Shown: positions 3,851-44,424 of the stretch, piece by piece
Numbering within the stretch: position 1 is the stretch's first letter
Layout: every line of letters begins with the position of its first letter
Assembly: GCA_002269645.1 (NCBI GenBank)
Contig: NIVC01004439.1
Coordinates: forward strand, 1 to 45,856
DNA: 45,856 bases
DNA from: Macrostomum lignano
Taxonomy: Eukaryota
Reading direction: 5' to 3'
Translations under genes and position numbers: made by a program
Notes under the pieces: model-generated
What the model saw: the letters and a program-made list of their open reading frames with translations, nothing else
Databases searched by the model: none
What the model was told of the DNA's origin: nothing

Positions 3851-3910
3851 CCGGGAGGTCGGGCAGAACAGGCTGCACTCCACCAGCCAGCGCGTCGAGG
3901 AGGACTACAT
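3851..3910 (+). CDS. Possible 60-nt symmetric host exon abutting Polinton copy 1
   Basis: CCCCGCAG acceptor; open frame REVGQNRLHSTSQRVEEDY; followed by GCA plus the element's AGT (a GC-type donor, GCAAGT). Confidence 0.3.
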
Positions 3911-3913
3911 GCA

Positions 3914-4221
3914 AGTAGTATAGAAAAAGACGCTTCTAGACCCAGAGCACTTTTTTAATGACCGTTTTAAGGGTCTAGAGGGGGGACACGGGGGGTAAAT
4001 AAAAAAACACATCTAAACACCCTTAACACATCTAATCACCCATAATCACCCCTAACAATAAAAATCACTTCCCAACACTTCCAAACACTCCCCAACACCC
4101 CCCTCGCGTCCCCCCTCTTAAGACCTTACAAACGGCCATTAAAATAAGGTCTGATCTAGAAGCGTCTTTTTCTATACTACTACTCTATAACCCCTTGCCC
4201 GCGCCGCAGGCGCGAAGGGTC
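3914..4221 (+). repeat. Left TIR of copy 1 (308 bp)
   Basis: Reverse complement of 21250-21556; contains an internal inverted copy of the terminal 27-mer at 4155-4181. Confidence 0.95.
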
Positions 4222-4402
4222 GGAAAGAATAGAAGCTATTTATAGTCAGCTCACCTACCCACCCAACATTCCATTTAGACCAGATTTTAGACCAAACAAA
4301 ACTAGACTATCGTTTTGGTTTTCGTTTTCAAAAATTTGGTCTAAAATCTGGTCTAAATGGAATGCAGACAATCTTTTTCTGTTACTAAAAATAGAACAAA
4401 AA

Positions 4403-4801
4403 ATGACACACGTTACACATATGCAAAATCTGAATGAATTGCAGGTAGGAGACCCAGTTGAATACCGAGGTGAGGGGCTTTTTGATGTGGTTGGAACAGC
4501 AGCAAATTTTGTTAAAGACAATATGGGGCTTATAGGGCAAGCTGGCTCTGCAGCAGGCTCTATAACAAATGCTGTAAAAGGAGGAATTGAAGCAGCTAGA
4601 GCGGCAGAAGAACTAAAGAAATTGAGAGATTTTAACGACACCCTCTCACAAATAAATGCAATAAAAGATTTAAAGCTGGCACAAGCCGCACAACCAACAG
4701 AAACCCCCACGAAAAGCGCACCAATAAGTAATAAAGATATTCAGGATTTTAATAAAATGTTAAATACTATTAAAGGTGGAAAAGGATTAAAGAAATTTTA
4801 A
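4403..4801 (+). CDS. 132-aa putative virion core/minor protein with protease-site-like motifs
   Basis: Intact and identical in protein sequence in both copies; YRGEG, VKGG and IKGGKG motifs resemble adenain (M/I/L)xGG / xGxG sites. Confidence 0.65.
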   Translation: MTHVTHMQNLNELQVGDPVEYRGEGLFDVVGTAANFVKDNMGLIGQAGSAAGSITNAVKGGIEAARAAEELKKLRDFNDTLSQINAIKDLKLAQAAQPTETPTKSAPISNKDIQDFNKMLNTIKGGKGLKKF

Positions 4802-4811
4802 CAATATAAAA

Positions 4812-5795
4812 ATGGACACAGATAACGACCGCTTATATTTTATAGGAGAAATTGTAGATACTTTAGATCTAGATGATAATAAACATAGCCACACAATGTT
4901 AAAAAGATTGGATCGATTAGGTAAAAAGTTTGACTACGACATCGATACATTTAAACTCGCAGCAAAATATGCACAAGAAGGAAGGCCAATATCCTTTAAG
5001 AATCGCGGCAGAAATTATAGGTTGACAGACTCCGATGTGAAATTTTTAATGGAGACTCACACTAAAAAGGACGGCGGATTACTACCCATTCTACCGCTTC
5101 TTTTAGGACTTGGCGCAGCTGGAGCAGTCGGTTTAGCCGGAAAAAGAATTCATGATAATGTAAAACAGCTAGGAGAGTTAAGAGCGAAACAGGGGGGAAT
5201 CTTGCCCCTTGCAGCTTTGCTCCCAATAATTTTTGCAGGAATTGGAGCAGCTGGAGGAGTTGCTGGCGGAGCAGCTGGAATTGCAAAAGCAGTAAATGAC
5301 AAAAAAGCTGCGGACGAAAAAGCTAAAAGAGAGGCCGAATTTCAAAGACAGCAAATAACGCAGGACGCACAATTTAAACAGAAACTTATTGATACCATTA
5401 ATAGTAGTTCAGCAACAGCAGAGCAAAAAAGAAATGCAGAAGCTAGGTTAGCAGCCGGAAAAGGTTTACTCTTGCAAGGAACAAATCACGGGAATGGTTT
5501 GGTACTAAAAGGAACAACCCAAGGAAGTGGAGTTGTCGCAGATAAACTACATGAATTTGGCAAACTTTAGAAAAAACGGGTGAGAAAGCTAAAGGATTTT
5601 TTGACAATATTGGATCCAATTTTAGACCAGCTGTTCAGAAAATTTTTAATAAATTAGGAAAAGATTTTAACATCATTGAAAAACACGACGGAAGCGGATT
5701 ATATCTCGAAATGAGACCAAAAGCAGGTTCAGGAATTTTCTTAAATTCAAACGTTATGGGCAATGGATTGCTATTACCAAAAGCAGATCTCGAAT
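4812..5795 (+). CDS. pX (adenovirus mu precursor)-like core/membrane protein; frameshift near 5567
   Basis: Two GG-[LI]LP hydrophobic segments (KQGGILPLAALLPIIFAGIGAAGG) resembling the adenovirus pX C-terminus; repeated G[KNS]G[LIV] motifs; intact as 328 aa in copy 2. Confidence 0.7.
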
Positions 5796-5880
5796 AGGCT
5801 CCTGGGGGAGGGTCTGGACACCAAAAACACAAAATTAAAAAATCAATAATTCAAACATTATATAAATTTTATTCTATAAA

Positions 5881-8800
5881 ATGGAAGCAATTTTAGCTCA
5901 AATCGACAACCCTGAACTTAGAGCACAATTAATAGCTCAAATCGATGCACAACGAATTGCCGATAGGGCTGAAATAGAAGCAAGAATTAGGGCAGAAAAT
6001 GAGATACGTTTAGAAAGACAATTAAATGATATTAATAACCCCCAACCACAAGGACAAAATGGAGCTGAAGTAATATATATAGATATAGATATAAATACAA
6101 ATTATAAAGAATATTTTAAACAAATGAAAGATAAATTAAAGACCATATTAAACAATTATACTATAAGGCCAAATAACAAACGACAGCCAATTAAGTATAA
6201 AATAGAAGTTGAAACAGAATTTAAAAAACCAAATATTCTTAATGCAAATTCAGAAATTGAAGTAATAAATAACTTTTCACAAGAATCATATAAAACATTA
6301 TTATCAATGGGAAATTACAACAATCAATTCGATCAAATAGAAGCTGAGTTTGATGAATGGATAGATAAGATGACAGAAAACGGATCTGGGTTTATATTTG
6401 TATCCTGTAATTCAGCAATAGTAAAGATTGCACCTATAGAAATTCTTAAAGGACGATCACATATGAAGCTCAAATTTAAATCACCTATGATTATAAATCC
6501 AGACAATAAAGATAATAAATGTTTATTATGGTGTTTATTAATTCATAAATATCACAATCAAGTAGAATCACACATTAATAAAATATATAATTATAGACAA
6601 TATGAGGATGAAATAATAATGAAAAACATATCATACCCAGTAGCAATAGATGATATATATAAGATTGAAAAAATGAATGGTTTAAATATTAATGTGTTTA
6701 CAATTGAAGAACCAAAAGATCTAGAAGAAATTCAGCAGGTCGATCCAGAATGGTATAAGAAAAACTGTTATCTTGTTAAGCCAGCAACTGATATAACAGC
6801 ACCAGATCAAATCGATCTTTTGTACATGCAGCGCGAAAATGAAACACATTATATATACATAAAAGATATTAGTTCTTTTTTAAGAGAAAATAGAAATAGA
6901 TATCCACTATGTAGAAATTGTTTTACATTTAAAAAGGATGAAACAGCTCTTAAAAACCACCAACGATTTTGTTTAGATCACAAATTTACTAATGCTATAA
7001 TGCCAGCATCTGAAGATGCAACCCTAAAGTTCCAACAACATTATATGGCAGTTAAAAAACCAATAGTAATATATGCTGATTTTGAAGCAACAAATGTTCC
7101 CTTAAAAGAATCACAGACGGTATCTGATGACGGTGAATGCACAAAAAAATTGGCACAACAGTTTCCGAATAGTTATTGTATATATGTACACTCTGTAGCT
7201 GATCATATATTTAAATCAAGGATGATTACTTACCACGGTAATGATGCAGCTAAGCACATGGCAGAATCATTAGTAAATGTATTTGAATATATTCAAAATC
7301 AATATGATAAATTATCAAAAAATATTAATATGACAAATAAGGATAGAGACAATTATAAAAATGCAACAAATTGTTTTATGTGCAAAAGACATTTAAGTAA
7401 GAATAATAAGATACGAGAACATTGTCATCTAACAGGAAATTATCGAGGGGCAGCATGTAGATCATGTAATGCAAAAGAAGGAAAAGGATGTAAGGAAATA
7501 CCAGTATTTTTTCATAATGGTTCCGGATATGATTTTCATTTCTTAGTTCGAGAATTGCTTCATTTAGGAAAGGATGAATATGAAATAAATATATTACCTA
7601 AAACATCAGAAAATTACATATCAATAACATATGGTAAGAAATACTCCCATCTAGTTTTTCTAGATTCCTTGAGATTCTTATCAACATCTTTAGCAAATGT
7701 TGTTTCATCATTAGTTCCAAAACCATGGGATTTAGAAATAGTAAAGAAAAACTTTCCAATACTATTGAATCGTTTCAAAAAGAAAAACTATCCGAGGAAG
7801 AACTAATGCTATTAACTCGTAAGGGCATCTATCCATATGAATATGTAACATCTGAAGACGTATTTTTTCATACCGAATTACCCCCAATTGAAAAGTTTTA
7901 TTCAACATTATCACAAACAAACATAAGTGAATCGGATTATGAACACGCTCAAAAAGTATGGAAATACTTTAATTGTAAAACATTTAAAGATTATCATAAT
8001 CTATATCTTAAAGCAGATGTTCTCCTATTAGCTGATGCATTTGAAAACTTTAGGAATCATACATATGAGAATTTTAAAATTGATCCCGCATATTGTTTCA
8101 GTGCACCGGGATTAACATGGGCTTGTGGTTTGAAACATACAGATGTTAAGATTGATTTACTAACTGATCATGATATGTTGTTAATGATTGAGAGAGGAAT
8201 TCGCGGTGGATTCTCGGGTGTACTAGGAGATAGATATACTAAAGTAAATAATAAATATCTACCAAATTATAATAAAAAAGAAAAATCATCATATGTATTA
8301 TATCTAGATGCAAACAATTTATACGGTGGTTGTATGAAACAAAAATTACCAATAGCTGATTTCCAATGGGAAGATGACCCCGATTATTACAAAAATATTC
8401 CCGAAGGAAGGGGCTGTATCGTAGAAGTGGATTTGCAATATACTCGGGAAGCAAAAGCAAAAACATATAAATATCCTTTAGCTCCAGAGCATTGTTCAGT
8501 TAATGAAGATGATTTATCACAAACACAAAAAGATTATCTTAAAGTAGATAATGCAAAACATCTAGCAACAAAAAAATTAATATTAAATTTACATGATAAG
8601 AAAAACTATGTAGTGCATTATAAGCTTCTACAATTTTATGAAAAGCAGGGATTAAAAGTGTCTAAAGTACATCGAACAATATCGTTTATTGAGGAAGATT
8701 GGTTAGCTAAATATATTGACTTTAATTCAAATCAGAGACAGATGTCAAAAACAAATTTTGAGAAAGATTATTGGAAATTAATGAATAATGCTTTTTATGG

Positions 8801-9844
8801 AAAAACGGTTGAAAATATTAGAGATAGAACCCAATTCCATTTAGAAAAGGATATTGATAAAGCAAAGAAATATTTCTCAAAACCTAACTTTAAAGACTTT
8901 ATAAAATTTGATGATAACTTTATGGGTATTCATATGAGAAATAAAACAACAAAATTTCTTAAACCAATATTTATTGGAATGGTTGTTTTAGATTTGCAAA
9001 GCTAGTAATGTATGAATACTATTATGATGTTATAAATAAAACATGGCCAGATAACTATCCAATATATGCAGACACCGACAGTTTGGTATTTAAGGTTGAA
9101 ACAGATGATCGGACAGCCGCGAACCAAAGGTTCGATGTCTATAAAGATATGGAAAAAATTAAGGATACATTGGATACCTCCGACTATCCGGATAACCATC
9201 CTTTAAAATCAGATCAAAATAAAAAAGTTGTACTTAAAATGAAAGATGAATTAAATAGCAAAATCATAACCGAGTTTATAGCAATAAGATCAAAATGCTA
9301 TGCATTTAAGGTTTTAGGACAGGAGGGAGAGGTAAAAAAAATAAAAGGGGTATCAAGAGCAGCAGTAAAAAAGATAACATTTGATGATTATAAAAACGTA
9401 CTTTTAGATTACCTTAATACAATTGAAAATTATCATGCTCCACAATATCGATTAAATTCAGATAAGCATCAGATGTTTGTCATCGAGACAGATAAAAAAA
9501 CATTAAGTCCATTTGATGATAAAAGATATTTAGATGATAAAATTAAAACATATCCATATGGTTTAAAAGAAGAGATAAAAAATATGATAAAAGATAAAAA
9601 ACAAAAAGAAGATATAATAAGTAAATATAATGAATACAAAGCGGCAATAAATAATTATTATTACGATTGTGATTGTGAATCCGAATGTGATTGTGAATAT
9701 AATACATTTCTAGAATATGAAAAAGATATAGATAATTATTATTCAACATTTCCAAAAGAACTTAAAAAATTAAATAAGGAAAAAGTCTTGAATAACTGGA
9801 AGAGATTAACAGAAAAATTACTTATCGGGTCTGTAAAAAACTAA
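5881..9844 (+). CDS. polB: Protein-primed family B DNA polymerase (~1320 aa; frameshifts near 7790 and 9000)
   Basis: ExoI IYADFE, ExoII FFHNGSGYD, YLDANNLYG, KLMNNAFYGK, YADTDS, SKCY and KGV motifs; EndoVII-like Zn insert CFMC...HCHLTGNYRGAACRSCN typical of Polinton PolB. Confidence 0.97.
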
Positions 9845-10177
9845 AGCATGTAATTGTTTGAGCAAATCATTAACTTCAATTTCATATATTATTGAGCACC
9901 AATTATCCTCACAGTCGGCAGGGTAACTTAAACAATCCTTTATTTTTTTCCTAAGTTTTTTTATTTTTCTAACCAATCTATCTATTTCAATTTCAATTAC
10001 TATTTCAGCATAAACAATATCTTGTCTTAAAAAACGTTTTCTTTTATCTATCTCATATCGGATGGGAAACATATCGTCCCCATACTCATGATATTTCTGA
10101 GATATAATTATATTTATTTTTTTATTAATATCATTAAGTTCACGCTCTTTAGTGATAAGGATTTTTATCGTATCCAT
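9818..10177 (-). CDS. 119-aa hypothetical helical protein
   Basis: ATG-initiated ORF, intact and identical in both copies. Confidence 0.55.
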   Translation of the reverse strand: MDTIKILITKERELNDINKKINIIISQKYHEYGDDMFPIRYEIDKRKRFLRQDIVYAEIVIEIEIDRLVRKIKKLRKKIKDCLSYPADCEDNWCSIIYEIEVNDLLKQLHALVFYRPDK

Positions 10178-10192
10178 TTTCTTATAAAAAAT

Positions 10193-10525
10193 TTAGTCTT
10201 CGTCGTCATCCTCCCAAACAGCCGCCAATTTTACAGTCCTATCACTCTTTTTATTATTTGTTTGTTTTAGTTTAAATTGCAATCCACCCTCGTTGCAGTA
10301 TTTCATAACAAACGCTTTAGGTTTATTAATAACTAAAACAGGAAAATTTTTAACATCATCTCCGCTTAGACATAAAATTTTTTGCCCATCTAATTGTAAA
10401 AATATTGATTGAAGCCCAATAAATTTAACCTGTCTCAAACATATAATATTATATTCTTTATTCTCCAACATATTGGGTGTGAGATAATTAATCACATTAG
10501 AATCGGTTTTGAACCAGCTCTCCAT
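10193..10525 (-). CDS. 110-aa hypothetical protein with acidic tail (possible OB-fold ssDNA-binding protein)
   Basis: Intact in both copies; beta-rich pattern and WEDDDED C-terminus. Confidence 0.55.
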   Translation of the reverse strand: MESWFKTDSNVINYLTPNMLENKEYNIICLRQVKFIGLQSIFLQLDGQKILCLSGDDVKNFPVLVINKPKAFVMKYCNEGGLQFKLKQTNNKKSDRTVKLAAVWEDDDED

Positions 10526-10551
10526 TTTTAATCTAAAAAAATAACAAAAAA

Positions 10552-11064
10552 ATGAAAGACATTTATGTTTGTAATAAATGTAATGTGACTATGCACAGAG
10601 GGCAAACAGCAAACGGAGATATATATCATATGTGTTATTCATGTTCTAAAATATATCAATTTGAAAAAACAAAAAAGATTGAAAACTCATATTACTATTT
10701 TAAAAACACAATTTTAAGAAATCTTACAAGAGACATTTCTGATCCAATTTTAATTCCCGGAAATAATGTTTATTTATATAATAACTTTTTCCATTTAAAT
10801 AAAGGAAAGGGATTAAGTTCGAAAGACTCTGAAAGGATTTTAATTTTAGTTGGATATTATTTCAATTTTCTTATTCGAGAGAATACAAAGTTTATAAGGA
10901 TAGGTAACATACCTAACGAAATGTTATTGAAAAAGTCATTGGAATTTTTATGTATTGATAAAAAATTTAAACCTAGGATCAGAAGAGAGTTACCACTTTG
11001 GGAAGAATATATAACATATGCATTAGAAAAACTAAACAACCTGAAGTTCTACCGCACTTCCTGA
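10552..11064 (+). CDS. 170-aa Zn-ribbon protein (possibly VLTF3-like)
   Basis: CNKC...CYSC at the N-terminus; present in both copies. Confidence 0.55.
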   Translation: MKDIYVCNKCNVTMHRGQTANGDIYHMCYSCSKIYQFEKTKKIENSYYYFKNTILRNLTRDISDPILIPGNNVYLYNNFFHLNKGKGLSSKDSERILILVGYYFNFLIRENTKFIRIGNIPNEMLLKKSLEFLCIDKKFKPRIRRELPLWEEYITYALEKLNNLKFYRTS

Positions 11065-11688
11065 CCGCGGGCTTTGTGCCCCAGTAGCAATAGTTTCAGG
11101 TTCGTAAATGCCTAATGTTTCTATCGGTGGAGCTTTGGGTTTATCGAGTCTCAACTCTTTTAATTCCATATCGGTAAAAGTTTCAACATCTAAAATTCTA
11201 TTTCTATCTTTTAAATATTTTTCATATAATTCAACCGCGGTTGATAATTCATGAATCGTTATCTCTCCGTCATCCAATATTTTTTGCACATATAAATATA
11301 ATTGATTTTTATATTGTTTTGCAACATCTCTTAAAGATTTATATTTTTCCTTTCTTTTTTTAAGATATAATTTAATTGCTAAAAGTATTGATAAGTTCCT
11401 GATCAATTCAAAACCTGATATTGAGCCAATTGAAATACCTAAAAATAATTGAGATAAATTAAGAGTTGGAATAGATTGTAAAATACCTAAAACGATTACA
11501 CATAACATTGATAAGCTTCCAAATCCAATATTGAAAAAGTCCATATTTCTTATATGGTTTGAAACTCTTCTTACTTTTTTAGCATATAAATCATAATCAT
11601 AGTTAATACGATCAACATTACTTAACATCTGACCTTTACGTTGGTTGAACCGGTCGCGTTCCCATTTATCTGCTTCAGATACCGACAT
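11032..11688 (-). CDS. 218-aa two-TM membrane protein of a type common in Polintons
   Basis: Two hydrophobic helices followed by a basic segment and KILDDGEITIHELSTAVELYEKY. Confidence 0.65.
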   Translation of the reverse strand: MSVSEADKWERDRFNQRKGQMLSNVDRINYDYDLYAKKVRRVSNHIRNMDFFNIGFGSLSMLCVIVLGILQSIPTLNLSQLFLGISIGSISGFELIRNLSILLAIKLYLKKRKEKYKSLRDVAKQYKNQLYLYVQKILDDGEITIHELSTAVELYEKYLKDRNRILDVETFTDMELKELRLDKPKAPPIETLGIYEPETIATGAQSPRSGSAVELQVV

Positions 11689-11998
11689 TCTCGTCTATTT
11701 TTAATAGCACCAAAATGAATTCCCCGCTCTTTGGGATTTGTCCCGAGCTCAATAGGTATTGTATTGGAGTTATTCTTTCTTTTTTCTCCCATTTAAATCC
11801 TATTTTCCAAAACTCTTGAAGTATAATATGATTTTTTAATAACTTAATTAATTCTTGAAGCTTCTTATTATCCTGAACATTTACAGTACTAAATAAAAAT
11901 TTGGTATGAGATTTGAATGTTTTTATATTTGATTCTTGTTTAGGAATAGGAATAATAACATTATTTTGCCGCATCGATGGAGTTCTACTAAAAGCCAT
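11675..11998 (-). CDS. 107-aa hypothetical protein (MAFSRTPS...)
   Basis: ATG at 11998; counterpart at 33993-34319. Confidence 0.5.
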   Translation of the reverse strand: MAFSRTPSMRQNNVIIPIPKQESNIKTFKSHTKFLFSTVNVQDNKKLQELIKLLKNHIILQEFWKIGFKWEKKERITPIQYLLSSGQIPKSGEFILVLLKIDENVGI

Positions 11999-12029
11999 TT
12001 TATATAGAAATATTTTATATATAAATATT

Positions 12030-14072
12030 TTATATTTGAGTAGGAGGTTTTTCCAAATAAGCAGTAGAGGGAAAAACATAACCAAACGACGTACTACCAC
12101 ATACAACTGCACCACGAATAAAATGTGCAGCATCCGCTCCACCAGTTCGAGCACCAAAACCCATAAGGGTTCCAGATTTATCTAAAGTTCCCCAAGTTCC
12201 ACTATCATATGTGAAAACGTTCTGTCCAATGAGGGTAAAAGAATCACCAGCAACATTGTATGACTGTAATCGGTACCAAACCCTTTGATTTAAAATATTA
12301 ACTTCAAATAAATGCCAATCGCCGTTATCAATATTAGCATAGGCTACAGTTTGATCCGCATCACTACTAACATCGTTACGAACCGTAGATCCGTCTGATT
12401 TTTTATTACTCCAAACAACTCCAAACCTATCATGCCACTCACTAGCAAAACTATCAATCCGGCGTCGGTTGATAATCCAGTCCAAATTCCGATGTTGGAC
12501 GTTGTGACAGTATGCATAAAACCAAACCGCATCTGCACCATCTCCTGTAGCATTAGCAACTCGGAAAAAGAAAGACGCAGATATATTTTGAAAATGTGTG
12601 AAATTGAATTGTAAAGCACCACTTACTCCAGAAGTTTCACGAGTAATTCTAGCGCCGTTTTGATAATCGATATAAGAAGCGTCACCAATTAAAGAACCGA
12701 CTGGATATATATCTCCGGCGGTTGTTGGATTTTGATATCCAGACCAATTGCAAATTACTGGTTCGAACAAGGCCGCATCAATAGCAGGTATTCCATCCAA
12801 TTTATTTTTATCGCTTCCAGACATTCTACCATTTGATGTTGGAGTAGCTAGCTGATCTACGTACGCTCGCGGAACTGCAGAAAGTATTTGAGTTGGCCAA
12901 TTAAGATCTTGAATTTCAACACGGTGTTCAAATAATTGTATTTGACGAACCTCGATAGGTTGTGTACCGGTACCACCAGTTGGGAAGAATACGCTATAAT
13001 ATTTCCAAAAATTAGTCGTTAAATTAGATAGAGCAAATGATGTTGCTTGAACTGGTGATCCCGACGTAGTTAATGTCGTCCATGAATCGGTAGCAACATT
13101 TTTTGCGCGAACCGACCACCCCGAGGGTATCTCAATTGTTTCACTGCCTGTAATTCTTAATTCAAATATTCTTCTATTATAACCTAAAAATTCAAATTGA
13201 ATTTCCATATTGGTTGTGGTTCCGGTATTTGGTGACCATTGTGTCGCAAGGCTTCCATCTCCAACTCGAAAAGCTGTGTTGCCATTTTCAGATGCTGTAA
13301 GAACAACATCAGGATTTGAAGTATTTGATGTAAGCGGCGTGGTAAAAATATCGGCGTCGGTTGCATTAGCTCGCTCGTTTACTTGGCCTAGAGTTATCGA
13401 GTCTGCGTTCTCTGTTCCAAATAATAAATTTGTTAATTTAAAATTATTCATATTAATATTACCACTACGAGTGGCAACTTGATTATCGACATAGTTCTTA
13501 TCAACCACTGAATCACTAGTTGTAATTGAAACATTTATAATTCGGTTGTTGCTCATATCTAGGTTTCCGGTTGCGGTGGTTTGAACATAACGTGAATCAG
13601 AATCAGTTCGAGAATAAGAATCAGTTACATCTCTTTTTAAATTTAATCCATTATCAACTTCGGTTTTGGTATAAGAATCGGCTACGTTCCGTTTCAAATT
13701 TAATGAATTATCAACTTCGGTTTTGGTATAAGAATCGGCTGTATTGCGTTTTAAATTTAATGAATTATCAACTTCGTTTTGGTATAAGAATCGGCTGTAT
13801 TGCGTTTTAAATTTAATGAATTATCAACTTCGGTTTTGGTATAGGAATCGGCTACGTTCCGTTTCAGATTTAGTGAATCATCTATTTGAGTTTTGGTATA
13901 GGAATCTGCAACATTTCTTTTTAAATTTAGTTTAGTATCAATTCACTTTTTTTATAACCTTCATCTCATTAATATATCGATTATCTCCAAATGTAACACT
14001 TATTCCACCAGATGTGCCACCACCACCACTACTTGTTGTTCCGTTCCATGAGGGTGTTCCAGAAAATAACAT
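12030..14072 (-). CDS. Fibre/receptor-binding-like protein: 14-aa repeats, discoidin (F5/8C)-like domain and ConA/L-lectin-like domain; N-terminus frameshifted
   Basis: KRNVADSYTKTEVDN repeats; ASENGNTAFRVGDGSLATQWSP...IQFEF; C-terminal SGALQFN...GDGADAVWFYAY. Confidence 0.7.
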
Positions 14073-14082
14073 TTTTTACTGT

Positions 14083-14529
14083 CTATTTTATAGAGTCTAA
14101 AATATCTGCTTTGCATGATACTAAATCTTCGGGTTTCCTTCGAGTTATTAATTTTATATAAAAAATACAACGCCGCTTGCCCGCAATAACTTTTATCAAA
14201 GTTTGAAATTGTTCGTGATGATCTCCACATAAACGATTTTTAGTATGATTAAATTTATCTTTTATTTCCTGTAACGGAGGAAGCGCGTATGAATCAAAAA
14301 AATAAACAAGTTTTGGTTTTGAATAAACTGCTGACCAATGAACACCATTTTCTTTTGTTGTTTCAATATTAACAATGAAAGATCCATATTGTGGTAAGTC
14401 TTTGATCTCATCTCGCATAACACATCTGAATGGTTTTATTTTTAACTGCCTCGCCCAATTTGTTAATTCGATATTGCTTGTTGTGTCCGTTCCATATCTT
14501 TGTTTAAAATCATCCCACGTCATGGTCAT
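14083..14529 (-). CDS. Adenain-type cysteine maturation protease (1-nt frameshift before the catalytic Cys)
   Basis: NGVHW (His), FFDSY (Asp); the adjacent frame continues with (Q)NFDKSYCGQAALYF (Gln/Cys). Confidence 0.9.
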   Translation of the reverse strand: MTMTWDDFKQRYGTDTTSNIELTNWARQLKIKPFRCVMRDEIKDLPQYGSFIVNIETTKENGVHWSAVYSKPKLVYFFDSYALPPLQEIKDKFNHTKNRLCGDHHEQFQTLIKVIAGKRRCIFYIKLITRRKPEDLVSCKADILDSIK

Positions 14530-14530
14530 T

Positions 14531-14730
14531 TTATGTTCCTGAAAAACTCTTGGTTTTAGTTAGTTTCGTAGGTGTGGGTTTTAACAATTCCTTTCTTATT
14601 TTATCAGCTTGTAACTGCCTTAATTTTGCTAGTTCTAGTTCGTAATTATCTTCAGCTTTTTTAACTTTTTCTGATTGTTTTTTTATTAAATTATTATTAT
14701 TATTTTACGCCATGTTGTTCGATTACCCAT
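14531..14730 (-). CDS. Small coiled-coil protein (~65 aa)
   Basis: NLIKKQSEKVKKAEDNYELELAKLRQLQADKIRKELL present in both copies between penton and protease. Confidence 0.45.
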
Positions 14731-14733
14731 TTA

Positions 14734-15513
14734 CTAAACCTGTTTTATACGTAAAATTATTGTTATTGACTGCCCACCAAAACTTATTAATCTATCGCTT
14801 TCATCTACAATCCTAATATAAATTGATTGAACATTATATTGATTTAATGGGTAATATATTGGGGTTTGAGGTGATACAATCATTTTCTCTCCAATTGGAA
14901 CAGCAAGAAATGGGATTGAATAAATAATTCCACGTTGAACCAAAACTCCGTTATCTGTTATATAACCACCGTTTGAAATGTCGGTTGTTATATTAATTGT
15001 ATTACTCCACCCTCATATTTCCACTGTATCACCGGTGCTTGATGTGGTAACTATTCGGGAATTAAATCCAAGTATGGTTCTGAGTGAATTTGCAATTGTG
15101 AAATCAACCTGATATCCGGATCCTAGTGATAGTGTGAATCTGCCAGACGGTAAATCAACACCTATAACAATTGCTCCTGCTACCCAATCACCATTAGTTG
15201 TTAATTCTCCTTCTATATAAGCATTCAAATCAGTATAGCTATACGCTCCTGGGTTAACGCTAAATGTTGTCCAATTGGCTCCGGAATCTTTAGAATATCT
15301 AAATTGATTATTTGTTGCATTAATTAATTGAGGCATGTTGAAAACCGAAAATAGTATTAAACCTATTTGATAACTTAGGCTTTGATCAAGTTGTAATGGA
15401 TCGCGCAATTGAATCCGTTGCTCGCTGGTTGTCATTATAAACTGTAATGTTGTACTAAATTTTGAATTAGTTCGATCTACCAATTGTTTTATAGTATTTA
15501 AATTTGTAGTCAT
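14734..15513 (-). CDS. Minor capsid protein (penton, single jelly roll); frameshifted
   Basis: LRDPLQLD...YQIGL...NNQFRY...PGAYSYTDL and C-terminal IIYSIP...PIYYPL...IRIVDESDRLISFGGQSITIILRIK pattern. Confidence 0.85.
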
Positions 15514-15528
15514 TTTTATAGTGGGAAA

Positions 15529-16314
15529 TTAATTCTCTTCCTCTCCTTCTTTTATCAAATTTGTTAAAATTCTATGTTTCCTTTCTAACCTCGGATTGAT
15601 ATAAATATGTTTGTATTGGCTATCATCCCAAATTTTTTTACACATACTTTTAAATGGTTTTGCATCCAATCCGGGATTAAATCTAGCGTGAATATTTTGT
15701 AATCATAATTATCTAAATCAAACATTACACAACAACTTGCATTCTTTTTTATAATCGATTCTAATTCTCTAAAGGATTGAGTAAGATAAAAAGCTCCAAT
15801 TCCATCTCCTCTACCACTAACAAAAATTTCCTTTTGCAATTCTTGATCACCGTCATTAATACAATCATCAAAAATAATTAGTGTTTTATCATGTTTTGGA
15901 ATTTGATCATAGGCTAATCGGGTTGATACTCTAACAGTTGGGGCGATCGGACGAAGTCCGCGACCCTTCGGGGCGATCGGTGATGTTTTCTGGCTGTTGT
16001 GCCATTGTTTTACATAAATCCTCAATGTCTGCTAGATTAAATCGCGGTTCGTCATCATCCTCATATTGCTCATATGCTCTTAACATTCTAAACAAGACAT
16101 CTTTTTTTAATTTGTTTTTTAATCCATGTTTAAGAAATTCATAATATTTTATTCTAGGTTTATTAGTATAAATTATTAAATTATTATAGTCTAACATTCC
16201 ATCTGTTGTTAATAAATCGTAAACAAAGTGTGTTTTTCCTTTACCTGATCCTCCGATTACTAAACAAAGAAAAGGATCATTTGGAAATATTTTATTGTGT
16301 TTTGCCTTTACCAT
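15529..16314 (-). CDS. A32/FtsK-like genome packaging ATPase; frameshifted
   Basis: Walker A GGSGKGKT, Walker B LIIFDD, SGRG and YLTQS motifs. Confidence 0.92.
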
Positions 16315-16329
16315 TTTTAAAGAAATAAT

Positions 16330-17829
16330 TTAAATAGGCGCGACGGTCGGAGACCTGCATTTTACAGCGGCGTCCCGAACAATCGTGCCATCAGCTTTAG
16401 CAATTGACATATATTCCTCTAGAAACAATACGTGGGCGTCAAGTGCCTGATTACCGGTTTTATTAATCTCTAACATATAATTAAGTCCAATATTGGCTAC
16501 GTTTTCTTTCTGTGCCGTTAGATCATAAACAACCACTGGATGAATGTTTAGAAACTCTGTGGGTGTGTACTGAGGGACGGCATACGCTTCATTTTTGCAT
16601 AATCTTGATAATATTTTATAAAATCATTAACATTATTATTTGCTATATTTAAATTTAGGGGTCTTTAACCGGATAATATTGATCATCAACCTGCAGGCGG
16701 ATATTCTGAACATTAAACTCGTTAATAGCTGCAGCCGCATTGTCTGTTGCGGTGGCTGCTTGTTCTGCTATGGCACCGGATTGAAGCCAATATAAATCCC
16801 CATTTGCTCTTTTACTCCTTCTATTTGTTATCTTAAACCAAACAAAAATATATCTCACCCGACGTTTTGATGTCAGTATTTGCCACTGGAATGAATCCTG
16901 GTTATTATTAATGGTTCGCATAAAATGTCGACGATTCAAATAAAATATTTCCTGATCATGCGTTAACTGATTATCGATGTGTTTTAAAAGTGGGGCTGTT
17001 ACCTCAATAGTTGGTACGACTAATTGAATTGAATCTATACGAACTGCTATATCGGTTGAAATTGAGGTTCCATAAAGTATCCTAGGCTGATATCCACCAG
17101 ATATTTGCAACTGTATCCCAAATTTTAATCCTTTCCATACCCGATTTGGTGAGAAAAACCCAAATAGTGGAAAGATTGAAAAGTCCTGCTCATATGCTGT
17201 TGCTGTGGTTAAAACCGCGACTGGGAATTTATTCTGACGATCTATAAAACCAGTATTAATATCTTTTGTATTAGTCATAGTGGTTACAACTGGAACTATG
17301 TTTGTATTAAGGTAAACAATTAGCGCTGCAGTATCTGCACCGGCTGCGTTTTGTACATTAGGGAAAACTACTGCTTGCCGTTACCTTTATCCGGCATCCA
17401 CCCAACATTATCACCAACTTGTTTTGATAAATAAGTATAATTTAAATGTTTCAAAACTCCATTAATCTCTGCGGGGTTTGATGATGTCTCAACCTCAGCA
17501 CCATTAACAGTTAGTTGAGCTTGGGAAAAACATTTATAAAACCAATCATTTTCTATTATTATTCCGGATCGATCTGCGATATCTCCGGCTGCAAGAGCAG
17601 TTCCATCATTTCTAGTATACAACCATCTAACGCGGAAAAACGCATTTTTCATATCCAATATAGTGTTGGTTGCGCCGATGTCAAAAGTTACCGTTCCAGT
17701 AGTAAAGTTATTTGAATTATCACTTGTTGGTAGGGTATAATTTAAATCTCTTGCTCTGACCTCATTAATATACTGTCGGTGCTTTTTGAAATGAAATTTA
17801 TCACTCCACATAGTTTTTGTTTCAGCCAT
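16330..17829 (-). CDS. Major capsid protein (double jelly roll, hexon-like); frameshifted
   Basis: FDIG...LDMKNAFFRVR, FSQAQLTVNGAEVE, PLFGFF, RYIFVWF, NIRLQVDDQYYP and VVVYDLTAQKE; ~500 aa once frames are joined. Confidence 0.88.
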
Positions 17830-17863
17830 TTTTTTAAGTTAAAAAAGTTTTTTATGTTAAAAA

Positions 17864-18528
17864 ATGAGTCAATTTATGGACGTTGATGGAGAGTTAGCGA
17901 TTTATAAAGAGAAGCAAAGATATTCTGATTTTGTTAGAAATTTACAAAAAAGAAAGTTAGGAATACAATTAGCGGGTGAAAGATTTGCTGCTCCTTTTGT
18001 TAATCCTATTACTGGGAAAATTAGTGAACTAGAAAAAACAGATAAAGATCTTCTGGAAAAAATTGCTAAAAATACGAGCCAAAAGAGGATGAAATTTTGG
18101 ATGAGCCGCCTGCTTATGATGTTGATCAAGCACAATTGAGAATTGCAGAGATTAGACGTGCAGAGCGGGGCGATCGGGAACAATATCCAAGAGTACCAGC
18201 TAGTATTGCTGCGACAGATTTAGGTAATAATAATTATCGAATTGGTGGAGTTGATAAAAATCGAGATGAACTATATAGAGAATTGGGTGGAGCATATAAT
18301 ATTGTTATGAACCCTAGGGTAAAATTTAACCCTGATTTATATACTAGGGATGAATTAATAAGTGCTAGAATTTTTTATGATGAGTTAGGAGGAGCTGTTA
18401 AAAATACCAGCTTGTATAAAAGGATTGTTAATTCTATAAATAACAAACCAGCTGTTGGAGAAGGATTTAAAACACCGCGAAAACTTGTTTTAGCTGCTGC
18501 GAAAGCTGCTGGACATACTGGAGTTTAA
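17864..18528 (+). CDS. ~220-aa conserved Polinton protein, function unknown; frameshifted
   Basis: Two overlapping ORFs that join into the copy-2 ORF at 40225; C-terminal VGEGF protease-like site. Confidence 0.6.
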
Positions 18529-18555
18529 TTAATTGTTAAATTTATTTTTTATAAA

Positions 18556-19122
18556 ATGGAAACTAATAAGATTTGTACTAAGTGTAAACAAGAAAAACCG
18601 ATGACGAAAGAATTTTATTTTTGGAGAAATGATTCAAAAAAATTTAGAAATGATTGTCGATCTTGTCATAATACCTCATCTGCTATTTGGATAAAAAACA
18701 ATAAAGATAAATGGAATGAATATAGAAAAAATAAGTATCACACTGATGATAATTACAAACATATTGTTTTAATTAGAAATAGAATAAATTGGGCGTTGAA
18801 AAATTTTAATGACAAGGACTATATCTCATATCTTGGTTGCACAAAAGAATTCTTTTTTGATTGGTTAAATTTCACAAGAAATTATTATGTATCAAAAGAT
18901 TATACTGGAAAGTTAGATATTGATCATTTCATCCCGCTTCTTCATTTAGTTACAAAGACGATGATCAGATTAAAAAGTCTGAAAATTGGAGAAATAAAAG
19001 ATACTTAACTAGCGTAGATAATAACTATAAAAAAGTTAAACAACCAACATTGAAGAGTTTGCAAAACAATTGGTGCTTCATGTATTTTTAAGGCTATTAA
19101 AAATGAACCAAATAGTGTTTGA
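18556..19122 (+). CDS. HNH endonuclease with N-terminal Zn finger (giant-virus type); frameshifted
   Basis: CTKC...CRSC; YLGCTKEFF; LDIDHFIP...HWTNKRYLTSVDNNYK when the frames of both copies are combined. Confidence 0.8.
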
Positions 19123-19228
19123 AGGAGGATTTTTAGATGTTCAAAAAGGATTAACAAGCTTACCACCAATCTTTACTACTGGTAAATATACAGGGGAACT
19201 ACACCTACCATCAATGAACTTCACAGGT
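19103..19228 (+). CDS. PLA2 exon 1 (42 aa)
   Basis: MNQIVFEGGFLDVQKGL...GELHLPSMNFTG, ending at the U of the intron 5' splice site. Confidence 0.85.
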
Positions 19229-19530
19229 TAACCCGTGGCCTGAGTGAGGAAGGCAATGTCCTTGCTAGTCACTATTTGTGGCGACATCTCCAAATTGCGT
19301 GAAACCCGTCATACAGCTTCAAGTACCACTTCAATTGAGAAATCTTTTGAAGGAACAGAGGTAACTCCTCTTCCCAAAGGTAAAAAGCTTGAAGACACGG
19401 TGGCAATGCGCAGCCAAGCTCCTAAGTATTTTAAATATAAGGAGAAGGTTCAGAGAGCAGACGGAGATGGGCGGTAATTATCGCCGCTTAAGGTGTGCTC
19501 CAGCCTCTTCGAAAGATTGAGGGTAAACTA
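19229..19530 (+). ncRNA. Group I self-splicing intron, IC1-like (302 nt)
   Basis: P AAATTGCGTGAAA, Q AATGCGCAGCCAAG, R GTTCAGAGAGCAG and S TAAGGTGTGCTCC; P3 CATCTCC/GGAGATG; P7 G-A(bulge)-GAGCA/TGCTCC; P5abc; P1 with a U-G pair. Removing it restores NFTG|PGT. Confidence 0.93.
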
Positions 19531-19853
19531 CCGGCACTCGCTTAGATTTGAGATTAAATCCTGACAATACTCCAAAATCTGATTCAATTCCAATAAATGG
19601 GATTGATTGGTTAGCATACTATCACGACTTAGCATATAGAGATGCTGACAAGAACCCGCCCGAGGAAGCATTAAGATTAAAACATGAAGCCGATCAAAAA
19701 ATGATTCAAGGATTAGATAACTTGCAGGGATTATCGGTAGGTCAAAAATTAACTAGGTGGATGGTTAAAAAATTCTTGCAGTCTAAAGTTAAATTTGGTT
19801 TAGGAATTAATTACAACAACATGGAAATAATTGTGTCGAATGTTTGTTATTAA
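19531..19853 (+). CDS. PLA2 exon 2 (parvovirus VP1u-type phospholipase A2)
   Basis: PGTRLDLRL...PINGIDWLAYYHDLAY...EADQKM: HD catalytic dyad and downstream D. Confidence 0.88.
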
Positions 19854-20666
19854 GTGGTAGTGGGCTAAGTTCTGATAAGGCTAAGGTTCTTCATAAAGAA
19901 TATCGAAAACCTAAATTTTATAGAAAAATCATGAACTTCAAAAAGAATGAAATTTGGTATGCTGATTTAATGTCGATGCCGAACGAAAGAGGATATAAAT
20001 ATATCTTAACCATATTAGATGGTTTTACTCGATACGCGTGGGCTGTTCCTTTAAATCCAAAAAGGAGAGGATGTTGCTGCTGCTTTTAGAAGTCTTGGAG
20101 AAAAAAGCGAACGTTTGTGTGTTGACGAAGGAAAAGAATTTTACAATCCTCATATGTATAAATTGTATCATTTTGAAAAAGGACAAGAAAGGAAAAAGGA
20201 CGCGAATGGGGAGTATATTAATAAAATTTATTCTATTTATGGAGAGAGTAAAAACGCATTAATAGAAAGATTTAATCGAACTTTAGGTAAGAAATTATGG
20301 TTTCAGTTTAGTCTTAATGGTAACCAAAAGTGGGTAAAAATATTACCAGACGTAGTGAAAGATTATAACAATTCATATCATTCAGCTATAAAGATGACTC
20401 CTCAACAAGCTTATAACAATCCTGAAAAGTTAAAGTTACTTTTGGAAAATTTGAAAAAAAAAAAAAATTTTAAGGTTGGTGATTCTGTTTATATCTATAA
20501 ATGGAAAGATAAGTTTGAAAAGGAAGAAAAGGATATTGGAAATAAGTGAGAAATTTACCATCAGTAAAGTTTTAAATACCAATCCTACAACCTATATAAT
20601 TGCTGATAAGGACGGTGAAGAAATATTGGGTTCTTTTATGAGAACCAGATAATGTCTGCGAACTAA
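19844..20666 (+). CDS. Retroviral-type (rve, DDE) integrase; frameshifted; probably C-terminal to PLA2
   Basis: VLHKEYRK...IWYADL...YKYILTILDGFTRYAWAVPL, VDEGKEF, NALIERFNRTL, YNNSYHSAIKMTP. Confidence 0.93.
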
Positions 20667-20676
20667 GTTCAAACAG

Positions 20677-20901
20677 TTACTTAAGACAACATGGTAGTAA
20701 ATTTTTTATAACAAACAAAAACAATATTATTACTATAATTGTTACTAATATTATTATTGACATTTGTTCAACTGTTATCAAACTTAAATTTTCATTAAGT
20801 TCATTAATTGGAACATTTCCGATGTAGGAATAGTTTACCTTCATTTTTTTATATATATTTTTCACAATAAATGTCGTTTCTGTTATAGAATAATAGTTCA
20901 T
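20677..20901 (-). CDS. 74-aa single-TM protein
   Basis: Hydrophobic IIILVTIIVIILFLFVI; identical in both copies. Confidence 0.55.
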   Translation of the reverse strand: MNYYSITETTFIVKNIYKKMKVNYSYIGNVPINELNENLSLITVEQMSIIILVTIIVIILFLFVIKNLLPCCLK

Positions 20902-20917
20902 TTTTTAAATATTTTTT

Positions 20918-21232
20918 TCACATAAAAATTTCACTTTCATTCTCTGAATCACTGGTTTCATATGAACTATTTGTTGATTCGGAATCTGTTGATCTAACCT
21001 CCCAATCATCCGAATTTAAATAATCTCCAAGTTGAAATATTAACTCACCCTCTTGTTCTAAATCATACATCTCATCTAGCTCTAATGGATAAAGTTTTAG
21101 GTCGTGCTTGTCGTCATATTTTAAATAAACTTCATCAATTATTCCATTCAAAATATGTTGTTTTATTATCTCTGCATTTTTAGCAACAGTCTCAAAAGTA
21201 TCACTAACAGAAAAGGTGTAAACTCGGGTCAT
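20918..21232 (-). CDS. 104-aa acidic hypothetical protein
   Basis: ATG next to the right TIR; identical in both copies. Confidence 0.55.
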   Translation of the reverse strand: MTRVYTFSVSDTFETVAKNAEIIKQHILNGIIDEVYLKYDDKHDLKLYPLELDEMYDLEQEGELIFQLGDYLNSDDWEVRSTDSESTNSSYETSDSENESEIFM

Positions 21233-21249
21233 TTTTAGTAACAGAAAAA

Positions 21250-21556
21250 GACCCTTCGCGCCTGCGGCGCGGGCAAGGGGTTATAGAGTAGTAGTATAGA
21301 AAAAGACGCTTCTAGATCAGACCTTATTTTAATGGCCGTTTGTAAGGTCTTAAGAGGGGGGACGCGAGGGGGGTGTTGGGGAGTGTTTGGAAGTTTGGGA
21401 AATGATTTTTATTGTTAGGGGTGATTATGGGTGATTAGATGTGTTAAGGGTGTTTAGATGTGTTTTTTTATTTACCCCCCGTGTCCCCCCTCTAGACCCT
21501 TAAAACGGTAATTAAAAAAGTGCTCTGGGTCTAGAAGCGTCTTTTTCTATACTACT
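21250..21556 (-). repeat. Right TIR of copy 1 (307 bp)
   Basis: Reverse complement of 3914-4221; internal terminal 27-mer at 21290-21316. Confidence 0.95.
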
Positions 21557-21785
21557 TACATCCAAGTACTTGGAAAGTATCCAAAGTAGAGCCTACTTGG
21601 TTCGACTTTCCAAGTTTGCAAAGTACACTTCCGATGTCTACATCCAAATACTTAGAAAGTATCCAAAGTAGAGCCTACTTGGTTCGACTTTCCAAGTTTG
21701 CAAAGTACACTTCCGATGTCTACATCCAAGTACTTGGAAAGTATCCAAAGTAGAGCCTACTTGGTTGACTTTCCAAGTTTGCAAA
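21557..21785. repeat. 82-bp tandem repeat, ~2.8 copies
   Basis: Units start with TACATCCA at 21557, 21639 and 21721. Confidence 0.9.
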
Positions 21786-23943: not shown

Positions 23944-24560
23944 GAACATTGCATACCTGGAAGGTACTTGAAAAGTGATTTAAGAAAACATTGCATACTT
24001 GGAAAGTACTTGAGAAGTGACTTGAGAAAACATTGCATACTTGGAAAGTACTAGAGAAGTGACTGGAGAAAACATTGCATACTTGGAAAGTACTTGAGAA
24101 GTGACTGGAGAAAACATTGCATACTTGGAAAGTACTTGAGAAGTGATTGGAGAAAACATTGCATACTTGGAAAATACTTGAGAAGTGACTGGAGAAAACA
24201 TTACATACTTGGAAAGTACTTGAGAAGTGACTGGAGAAAACATTGCATACTTGGAAAGTACTTAAGAAGTGACTGGAGAAAACATTGCAAACTTGGAAAG
24301 TACTTGAGAAGTGACTAGAGAAAACATTGCATACTTGGAAAGTACTTGAGAAGTGACTGGAGAAAACATTACATACTTGGAAAGTACTTGAGAAGTGACT
24401 GGAGAAAACATTGCATACTTGGAAAGTACTTAAGAAGTGACTGGAGAAAACATTGCAAACTTGGAAAGTACTTGAGAAGTGACTAGAGAAAACATTGCAT
24501 ACTTGGAAAGTACTTGAGAAGTGACTGGAGAAAACATTGCATACTTGATACTTGGAAAGT
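23944..24560. repeat. 42-bp minisatellite, ~14 copies
   Basis: Unit GAAAACATTGCATACTTGGAAAGTACTTGAGAAGTGACTGGA. Confidence 0.95.
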
Positions 24561-26167: not shown

Positions 26168-26244
26168 CTGAAACAAACGCATTGACATTCAGTTCTAGGA
26201 TGCTCTTTCTACTTTCTACTTGACTTTTGTTGACTGCTTACCAA

Positions 26245-26542
26245 AGTAGTATAGAAAAAGACGCTTCTAGACCCAGAGCACTTTTTTAATGCCCGTTTTA
26301 AGGGTCTAGAGGGGGGACACGGGGGGTAAATAAAAAAACACATCTAAACACCATTAATACATCTAATCACCCATAATCACCCCTAACAATAAAAATCACT
26401 TCCAAACACTCCCCAACACCCCCCTCGCGTCCCCCCTCTTAAGACCTTACAAACGGCCATTAAAATAAGGTCTGATCTAGAAGCGTCTTTTTCTATACTA
26501 CTACTCTATAACCCCTTGCCCGCGCCGCAGGCGCGAAGGGTC
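26245..26542 (+). repeat. Left TIR of copy 2 (298 bp)
   Basis: Lacks one 10-bp internal unit relative to copy 1; internal inverted terminus at 26476-26502. Confidence 0.95.
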
Positions 26543-36377: not shown

Positions 36378-36387
36378 TTTTTACTGT

Positions 36388-43645: not shown

Positions 43646-43951
43646 GACCCTTCGCGCCTGCGGCGCGGGCAAGGGGTTATAGAGTAGTAGTATAGAAAAA
43701 GACGCTTCTAGATCAGACCTTATTTTAATGGCCGTTTGTAAGGTCTTAAGAGGGGGGACGCGAGGGGGTGTTGGGGAGTGTTTGGAAGTGTTGGGAAGTG
43801 ATTTTTATTGTTAGGGGTGATTATGGGTGATTAGATGTATTAATGGTGTTTAGATGTGTTTTTTTATTTACCCCCCGTGTCCCCCCTCTAGACCCTTAAA
43901 ACGGTATTAAAAAAGTGCTCTGGGTCTAGAAGCGTCTTTTTATATACTACT
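43646..43951 (-). repeat. Right TIR of copy 2 (306 bp)
   Basis: Reverse complement of the left TIR; internal terminal 27-mer at 43686-43712. Confidence 0.95.
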
Positions 43952-43954
43952 TAC

Positions 43955-44424
43955 CAACGGTCGCAAAGCATGTCGATTCTCATCTCGGCTGCATCCATCG
44001 CATCGGCCATGATCACCAAGCCGGGCTCGCTGTCACACTTGGCCTTGCTCGGCTTCCAGAACTTAATTCCGGTACAGCTTGTACTTTGACAAAAGTCGTC
44101 GCCATAGCCAGAACACAGAGCGCAGCTCGGTTGGTCCTCGGTGGACGCAGTCGCGCACTTGCTTGCTGCACCGATCGAACACGAACAGCCGACAGACACG
44201 GGAGCTCGTAGCCGTCTCCATGGTGAACGCCTTGCACAGGGGCTCCGATCTGCACTGAATGGAGCAGTCGAGCTCGGTGCGAGCTCGCGGCATGACTTTG
44301 ACGAACTCGTCTCGGATGCACAGGAATCCTTCGATTGCGTTGAACTCGTCCATGTGGCAGGCGCTCCAACCGGCCGAGTAGCCAGCATGAGGCCGAGGAG
44401 TGTCCGGAGCAGAGCCGGCCACAT
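43955..44424 (-). CDS. Host exon: signal peptide, PAN/apple-like domain and Cys-rich segment (two apparent frameshifts); probable 5' part of the FReD gene
   Basis: MWPALLRTLLGLMLATRPVGA; LDCSIQCRSEPLCKAFTM...CRLF (PAN pattern); ends at TG|GTAAGT. Confidence 0.6.

Follow-up and report, generated by a model that had tools for sequence, protein, structure and literature searches.

Polinton ends that carry an inverted copy of themselves in Macrostomum lignano and in some related elements

Results

Two Polinton copies on a Macrostomum lignano contig

The window analysed here, the whole 45,856-nucleotide stretch of Macrostomum lignano contig NIVC01004439.1, contains two Polinton/Maverick copies (E1 and E2) of about 17.7 kb each in the same orientation. 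Their principal features are given below; L numbers denote related pPolB loci described further on.

3914..21556, plus strand: Polinton element 1 (E1), 17,643 bp, with a 308-bp terminal inverted repeat (TIR) at both ends and pPolB, rve, A32, PLA2-like and pX matches
5881..9844, plus strand: E1 pPolB, Beta / group-1 type with an HNH Endonuclease_7 insert, in three ORFs
14083..14529, minus strand: probable maturation protease, named from its motifs; no Pfam match; homologues beside core genes in L001, L003, L028 and L047
15585..16329, minus strand: A32-like packaging ATPase, in two ORFs; Pox_A32 E 0.004, below cut-off
16330..17838, minus strand: capsid ORF, putative double jelly-roll (DJR) MCP, through a 49%-identical homologue
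19811..20549, plus strand: rve integrase, in two ORFs
26239..26244, plus strand: left 6-bp TSD of E2, TACCAA
26245..43951, plus strand: Polinton element 2 (E2), 17,707 bp, oriented as E1
43952..43957, plus strand: right 6-bp TSD of E2, TACCAA

The first-pass annotation of this DNA identified the elements as Polintons, an identification borne out by their length, TIRs, end motif and polymerase and integrase genes and by the TSD of E2. Element and TIR lengths fall within the ranges of 13–25 kb and 100–1500 bp given in the available text of PMC10748475, and all four window ends carry the (AGT)2//(ACT)2 motif defined in that of PMC8097293. The TSD of E2 is perfect at 6 bp, where 5–8 bp, usually 6, is expected of a Polinton. 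E1 lacks a clean 6-bp TSD; its 8-bp flanks (3906-3913 and 21557-21564) match at 7 of 8 positions. The right flank of E1 opens an 82-bp tandem repeat, the start of which resembles the element junction. Between E1 and E2 there are 24 substitutions in the first 8 kb and 33 gap events over 8.9 kb, and frameshifts, owing either to sequencing error or to decay, split pPolB, MCP, ATPase and integrase in both copies.

A homologue search with the polymerase scored 8,000 sequences, 6,011 of them at E<=1e-20, and the phage and plasmid collections contain no match to it. Pfam Endonuclease_7 is matched within pPolB at 29.3 bits against a cut-off of 23.6. PF03175 finds no match in the window polymerase, which together with the HNH insert fits the Beta / group-1 / pPolB2 class as defined in the available text of PMC8502044 and PMC10748475. 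In a sequence comparison with relatives, the N-terminus of pPolB keeps Ser-Gly and Cys motifs, apparently those of the TP and vOTU domains described in 10.1101/2024.03.18.585575. Matches to rve, Pox_A32, a PLA2-like domain and adenovirus pX stay below the Pfam cut-offs; for the split integrase ORF, rve scores 26.5 bits (E 7.7e-06) against a cut-off of 32.6, and the second piece matches a DDE model (E 1.3e-05). The capsid homologue P0121 (49% identical) matches a double jelly-roll cluster (TM 0.77/0.84), and by way of this homologue the window ORF is read as a putative double jelly-roll MCP. Homologues of the ATPase and the protease sit among the core-module genes of L028 and L047. Among the 29 ORFs scanned against Pfam, several of which have no assignment, none matches HUH/Rep.

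Each window end is a fold-back unit

The TIRs of both elements are built from an outer arm, a loop and an inner arm, followed by a short segment on the side of the core.

3914..4221, plus strand: E1 left TIR, 308 bp; 99.0% identical to 21250-21556, 98.4% to 43646-43951 and 95.8% to 26245-26542
3914..4181, plus strand: fold-back unit (outer arm, loop, inner arm), 268 bp
3914..3940, plus strand: outer 27-bp end, with the (AGT)2 motif and a TTC box at 21-23
3914..3995, plus strand: outer arm, with its own AGACC/GGTCT dyad
3996..4097, plus strand: C/A loop, 102 nt, G-free on the plus strand, unstructured, with 10-bp-period repeats
4100..4181, minus strand: inner arm, 83% like the outer arm
4155..4181, minus strand: inner exact copy of the 27-bp end
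4182..4221, plus strand: inner TIR segment, 40 bp, with a GC hairpin at 4192-4219 (-11.2 kcal/mol), 11 nt inward of the unit
4267..4364, no strand: subterminal 30-bp perfect inverted repeat, at the left end only, with tandem TAGACC motifs, between the TIR and the first ORF; E2 counterpart at 26588-26685
21250..21556, minus strand: E1 right TIR, with fold-back unit 21290-21556
26245..26542, plus strand: E2 left TIR, with unit 26245-26502 and a 10-bp loop deletion
43646..43951, minus strand: E2 right TIR, with unit 43686-43951 and one mismatch at outer position 10

The terminal 27-mer occurs eight times in the window, seven times exactly and once with a single mismatch, the latter at the outer right end of E2 (43925-43951); no copy appears in 100 shuffles. 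The exact inverted copies that the first-pass annotation placed inside the TIRs, at 4155-4181, 21290-21316, 26476-26502 and 43686-43712, are all present, and they pair with the outer copies into four fold-back units of 268, 267, 258 and 266 bp. Its account of imperfect arms of about 80 bp around a C/A-rich loop of about 100 bp also agrees with the alignment of the first unit, in which 3914-3995 and 4100-4181 are 83.3% identical over 84 columns; across the four units the arms are 81–83% identical over 84 columns. The first unit begins where that annotation had it begin, at 3914, and ends at 4181 rather than 4184, positions 4182-4184 being a third ACT repeat; the complete TIR is longer than the roughly 270 bp proposed, with 40 bp lying core-ward of the unit.

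Arm identity is unevenly distributed. The terminal 27 bp form a perfect stem in the first unit, and all 14 arm differences fall beyond position 27 (P 0.002 if randomly placed), where the stem continues as about 55 bp of imperfect pairing. The unit is predicted to form a single hairpin at -61.9 kcal/mol on the plus strand (z -13.4) and -65.0 kcal/mol on the minus strand (z -12.9), energies equalled by none of 200 shuffles on either strand; the expectation that each end can fold into a large hairpin is thus upheld. The loop (47 A, 36 C, 19 T and 0 G on the plus strand) has no predicted structure on either strand. At the folded right end of E1 the 3'-terminal base, 21556, pairs with 21290, and the partner strand continues into the core. 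A full panhandle between the two TIRs is predicted at -398 kcal/mol, against -147 kcal/mol for two local folds. Rfam holds no match for the unit.

As already recorded in the first reading, the same arm is outermost at all four window ends, with no flips. Left and right units also align in direct orientation (arms 83% and 82% identical, with 27-bp perfect blocks). A read-level fold-back artefact is unlikely, because the positions at which the two arms differ are constant across the four copies and the copies have different flanks. Two loop substitutions are common to both ends of E1 and different at both ends of E2, which indicates that copying between the left and right TIRs is still going on.

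Several smaller observations concern the same units. Outer-arm positions 47-48 (3960-3961 and their equivalents), at a hairpin mismatch site, show four states in the four copies, unlike the nearly invariant inner arm. G-runs had been assigned to the strand opposite the loop; they do exist, yet they sit in the arms of both strands, paired with C-runs. The bottom strand holds no four-tract G-quadruplex pattern with loops <=12 nt, and a G-quadruplex role is not supported. The motif AGACC/GGTCT, probably a protein-binding site, occurs eight times in 487 bp (3914-4400) and nine times in the 16.8-kb core (P 4e-10), as a dyad within each arm and as tandem pairs in the subterminal repeat. Over 4260-4370, this repeat gives only below-threshold, chance-level Rfam matches to miRNA hairpins.

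Nested ends occur in some related elements

GTDB contigs were scanned with a 39-protein pPolB alignment, which yielded 65 loci (L001-L065). These lie in GTDB representative prokaryotic MAGs, many of them in one assembly (CBDDTI01), and are probably eukaryotic contamination. A candidate terminus was located in 12 of the 65 loci, as a single end each and without TSD support, and a nested inverted end motif is found at the apparent terminus of five (L017, L014, L016, L005 and L053). The L017 unit spans 129 bp and has an AGT-type end with 19 bp exact; L014 and L016 belong to the same family, are near-identical to each other and are truncated at the contig start, losing the outer ~10 nt. L005 has a near-perfect hairpin of 159 bp and its relative L053 a unit of 104 bp with ~29-bp arms, and both termini bear an AC-type motif known from swamp-eel Mavericks (PMC8097293, available text). 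In L050 the subterminal hairpin is degenerate, with the last 10 nt unpaired. The nested end is absent at the remaining six candidate termini, L001, L003, L010 (which has an N gap), L011, L012 and L046, and L003 is a close pPolB relative of L005 and L053. No flip in orientation is seen among the three L017-family ends (L017, L014, L016) or the two L005-family ends (L005, L053).

A control screen of 528 end-motif occurrences across the 65 loci recovered an inverted copy matching at least 13 of 14 positions within 800 nt only in the L005, L017 and L053 units (6 hits). All three units lie directly upstream of pPolB, and a search of 152 Polinton ORFs gave no matches outside them and 22–75 inside. 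Inverted repeats lacking the end motif (L022 4288-4654, L005 7578-7745, L007 4984-5261, and L028/L047 near the right boundary) were left out of the count. Within the DNA examined, the L007/L021/L040/L044 and L029/L035/L049/L051/L057 families have no identifiable terminus. At 4523-4549 of L012, at the contig end, a GC hairpin directly follows the apparent end motif and recalls the window hairpin past the inner motif.

The nested end had been described as non-standard for Polintons. It is indeed not routine, as the six termini without it attest, and neither is it unique to the window, given the five loci that have it; it is present in some Polintons and absent from others.

Arms co-vary within elements and the perfect stem stops past a TTC box

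Outer and inner arms of L017 agree at 27 of 30 positions. The inner arms of L017 and L014 agree at only 17 of 30 (4 of 14 at positions 7-20), with 55 of 73 loop positions shared and pPolBs 69% identical. Likewise, the arms of L005 match at 30/31 and those of L053 at 26/31 within each element, as against 22/30 and 21/31 between the two. In these aligned ends, then, the two arms of an element change together, even though they diverge from one element to another.

Six of 10 termini have a TTC beginning at position 20-22, compared with 21 of 585 background motif occurrences; the termini were chosen without reference to TTC, and L001, found through the motif, was left out. The TTC box (positions 20-24) is present in the window, L017, L005, L053, L003 and L010 and missing from L011, L012, L046 and L050. 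Because the perfect stem ends just past this box, it likely matches the functional end, and the minimal Polinton end is likely about 27 bp.

On a pPolB tree of 14 rows (the window, 12 loci and one protein), nested ends require three changes in three separate places, and a single clade is rejected (p-AU 1.3e-64). A 41-row quick-mode tree had been seen before this 14-row test, and the 'no nested' labels rest on uncertain termini. Polymerase exchange between elements also occurs, with L028 and L047 as the example: the two are 93% identical over ~9 kb, while no DNA-level alignment is obtained between their pPolB regions, which lie apart on the tree. With these caveats on labels and swapping, the tree points to a scattered occurrence, through repeated gain or loss.

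Discussion

A distinct end architecture in otherwise ordinary Polintons

We conclude that the nested end is genuine, recurs, and forms an end architecture that has apparently not been described before, in Polintons that are otherwise ordinary. The window elements share with Beta-PolB Polintons/Mavericks (group 1; pPolB2 with HNH insert) their size, TIR length, (AGT)2//(ACT)2 ends and 6-bp TSD, together with the pPolB, rve integrase, ATPase, DJR capsid, pX and PLA2-like genes, and differ in that their own end is repeated in inverted form within the TIR (Barreat & Katzourakis 2021, PMC8097293; Jeong 2023, PMC10748475; Starrett 2021, PMC8502044). The main texts of PMC8097293 and PMC10748475 contain neither 'hairpin' nor 'palindrom', and that of PMC8502044 does not contain 'hairpin'. 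Term and end-motif searches of the supplements of Starrett 2021 and Jeong 2023, respectively, yield no TIR sequences, and the supplement of Barreat 2021 gives only 6-bp motifs in a table, among the first 2 of 713 matches. The available portions of these three papers, of PMC11296320, PMC5803895, PMC12747079, PMC4061559, PMC5449611, 10.1101/2024.01.15.575659, 10.1101/2024.03.18.585575 and 10.64898/2026.10.13.758929, and of the C. elegans eri-6/7 preprint, contain no description of a nested inverted end in pPolB Polintons of animals.

The only close precedent found in the open full-text literature, so far as the accessible text of that preprint goes, is a July 2026 report of terminal palindromes in Halocafeteria seosinensis virophages (subtypes 1, 2, 5 and 6) as well as in PLV subtype 4, which proposes a hairpin-priming model, concerns mostly non-pPolB replicases and calls for a wider survey (10.64898/2026.07.28.741278). 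In both cases a palindrome lies within the TIR beside the TSD of an integrating Polisuviricotina element, and a replication role is proposed for the hairpin. The protist palindromes are short (52 nt in the case shown; the screen allowed gaps of up to 10 nt) and go with non-pPolB replicases, whereas the window unit measures 268 bp, has a 102-nt loop and belongs to an animal pPolB element. Some casposon TIRs contain internal palindromes (PMC4046053), and bidnavirus TIRs, which are tied to Polintons, form no such hairpins (PMC4061559), as far as the available text of each goes. Terminal-protein telomeres of Streptomyces resemble the window ends in being protein-primed linear ends whose 3' single strand folds back, and truncated ends are there shown to be repaired from a fold-back template; they differ in their unrelated proteins (Tap/Tpg), in their 13-nt palindromes and in repair by a short terminal hairpin rather than a long-range duplex (PMC5449611, available text). 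The working model of Polinton replication, a single-strand panhandle between the two TIRs, is restated in the accessible text of PMC4046053 and 10.64898/2026.07.28.741278.

The unit as a proposed fold-back telomere

The unit is a structural part of the Polinton TIR rather than a separate mobile element. We infer that it serves as a fold-back telomere: on single-stranded intermediates it would offer protein priming a duplex origin formed locally, and it would also be a template from which the 3' end is repaired, without flip-flop. This remains a tentative reading, to which we assign a probability of roughly 40%. On the general view of Polintons, replication would pass through single strands, arising by excision or strand displacement. 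A freed 3' end could then fold locally into a double-stranded origin within ~270 nt, with no need of a 17-kb panhandle, and the terminal-protein domain of pPolB would prime at the outer end and copy arm, loop and core; priming there would keep a single orientation. A nibbled or mismatched 3' end might be trimmed and rewritten from the inner arm through the same fold, which would make identity perfect at the tip and let it decay inward. Each of the two unstructured loops on one strand is complementary to the other, and a panhandle could still start from them, which would account for the homogenisation of left and right ends. Copy-back at termini would probably create such units repeatedly, and TIR copying would carry them to both ends.

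The fixed orientation, the perfect tip at a conserved box, the co-variation of the arms and the retained Ser-Gly/Cys motifs all fit a fold-back telomere. The proposal in the first-pass annotation that the inner copy acts as an origin or repair template is accordingly plausible, the perfect part of the stem comprising the terminal hexamer and the TTC box. Against a fold-back telomere, the panhandle is far more stable, so local folds could be no more than kinetic intermediates, and the six candidate termini without a nested copy, including that of L003, indicate that the unit is not required. In Streptomyces the long-range terminal duplex (Rabbit Ears) is not the repair template (PMC5449611, available text), which also counts against it. 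Co-variation could result from mechanical copying without benefit, and what the relatives appear to contribute comes from candidate termini, one end each. Finally, the folded 3'-OH is paired and ready to prime, a geometry that fits self-priming equally well.

Alternative explanations

Hairpin self-priming is the main rival to a fold-back telomere. The ITR of parvoviruses and AAV is a palindromic terminus with a paired 3' end and an inner non-palindromic segment common to both ends, and the window TIR is likewise a terminal palindrome with a paired 3' end and an inner non-palindromic segment at both ends. On a parvovirus-like scheme the paired 3'-OH would prime the second strand, with the core beyond the inner motif as template, and a nick near the inner motif or the GC hairpin, a small hairpin 11 nt inward of the unit, would resolve the closed end; perfect pairing of the tip would be a primer requirement, and a model of this kind has been proposed for the Halocafeteria virophage and one PLV subtype (10.64898/2026.07.28.741278, available text). 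Simple terminal resolution, however, predicts flip/flop, of which there are 0 cases in 9 ends, a small sample in which this outcome has an estimated chance of about 1/8 to 1/32, according to the number of ends taken as independent. The lack of a Rep/HUH nickase match in the Pfam scan, the apparent TP/vOTU motifs retained in pPolB and the association of the preprint's palindromes with non-pPolB replicases argue in the same direction, the window element being a protein-primed dsDNA element with an integrase; we therefore regard self-priming as unlikely. A neutral origin, in which the end was duplicated by a template switch, the copy spread through TIR copying to both ends and hairpin-driven conversion keeps the tip matched at no benefit, would suit the scattered distribution on the pPolB tree (three changes, one clade rejected), the range of unit sizes from 104 to 268 bp, the contrast between the near-perfect L005 hairpin and the short arms of L053, and the unpaired tip of L050. 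Yet L017 and L014, with pPolBs 69% identical, keep the structure at a fixed position and with a conserved loop, and the point where the perfect stem breaks off is not random but lies immediately beyond the TTC box. An origin without function seems to us rather improbable as well.

MITEs and composite transposons place a short unit with its own inverted ends on both sides of a cargo. The first-pass annotation likened each element to a composite transposon bounded by two MITE-like units, so that the unit would be a mini-Polinton, its inner end a second integrase substrate and solo elements of ~268 bp a product. The unit does have a full left and right end and is short, non-coding and bounded by its own terminal inverted repeats; left and right units align in direct orientation, and because a palindromic TIR doubles as an imperfect direct repeat, solo units comparable to solo LTRs could result from recombination. 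The comparison is nonetheless unsupported. The unit is a sub-part of the TIR, with the 40-bp segment core-ward of it, and no TSD surrounds it, the flanks differing in 4/4 window units and in L017, L005 and L053; neither a solo nor an inner-ended copy appears in 10,506 bp of window flanks or in the 65 loci, and no older terminus comes after the inner motif. We consider this explanation very unlikely.

Cleavage of an extruded cruciform is similarly a long shot: a junction extruded at the host-element boundary would be cut by the HNH domain of pPolB and the end refilled without a flip, a geometry that would explain the absent flip-flop. Besides the Endonuclease_7 score given above, a weak alignment to T4 endonuclease VII (E 0.83) that keeps the zinc cysteines, His and Asn speaks for such an activity. 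The HNH motif, however, is found in 5/5 nested and 5/6 non-nested loci and so does not track nested ends, which leaves a link between the two unsupported, and Glu takes the place of Asp as first metal ligand (likewise in 55/120 homologues). Extrusion from duplex DNA is also unfavourable with a 102-nt loop and mismatched arms. Inserts of this kind are interpreted as homing-endonuclease invasions in the available text of Krupovic 2024. A broader version holds that self-complementary ends arose repeatedly in pPolB Polintons as a release route, in which the HNH/endonuclease-VII domain cuts the boundary junction, pPolB refills a correctly oriented end and the donor site collapses through its direct-repeat arms to a solo unit with the old TSD, like a solo LTR; we give this little credence.

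Whichever process operates, a self-folding end with two distinguishable arms is a built-in reporter for Polinton exit and replication: orientation counts, solo units and end chemistry would separate protein priming, hairpin priming and junction cleavage. The recurrence of nested ends in three pPolB lineages, with two end motifs and a position-fixed TTC box, suggests from these alignments an overlooked layer of Polinton end biology, and the design may help explain how Polintons copy and repair their ends.

Additional observations

In L007 an internal segment of ~6 kb (10596-16814) is inverted relative to L040 and L044, with short AT-rich palindromes at its borders. A fibre-like gene with 57-bp repeats differs between the two window copies (12030-13820 and 34335-36380): its C-terminal part is only 74% identical and its middle does not align, which looks like a swapped receptor-binding module. 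On the minus strand at 25731-26168, an exon for a fibrinogen C-terminal domain adjoins E2, which seems to have inserted in an intron of a host fibrinogen-domain gene. The flanks contain tandem repeats at 23819-24658, 25034-25337 and 44993-45391 (42-bp, ~85-bp and 29-bp units), and the 42-bp host repeat unit has a motif in common with the 82-bp repeat beside E1.
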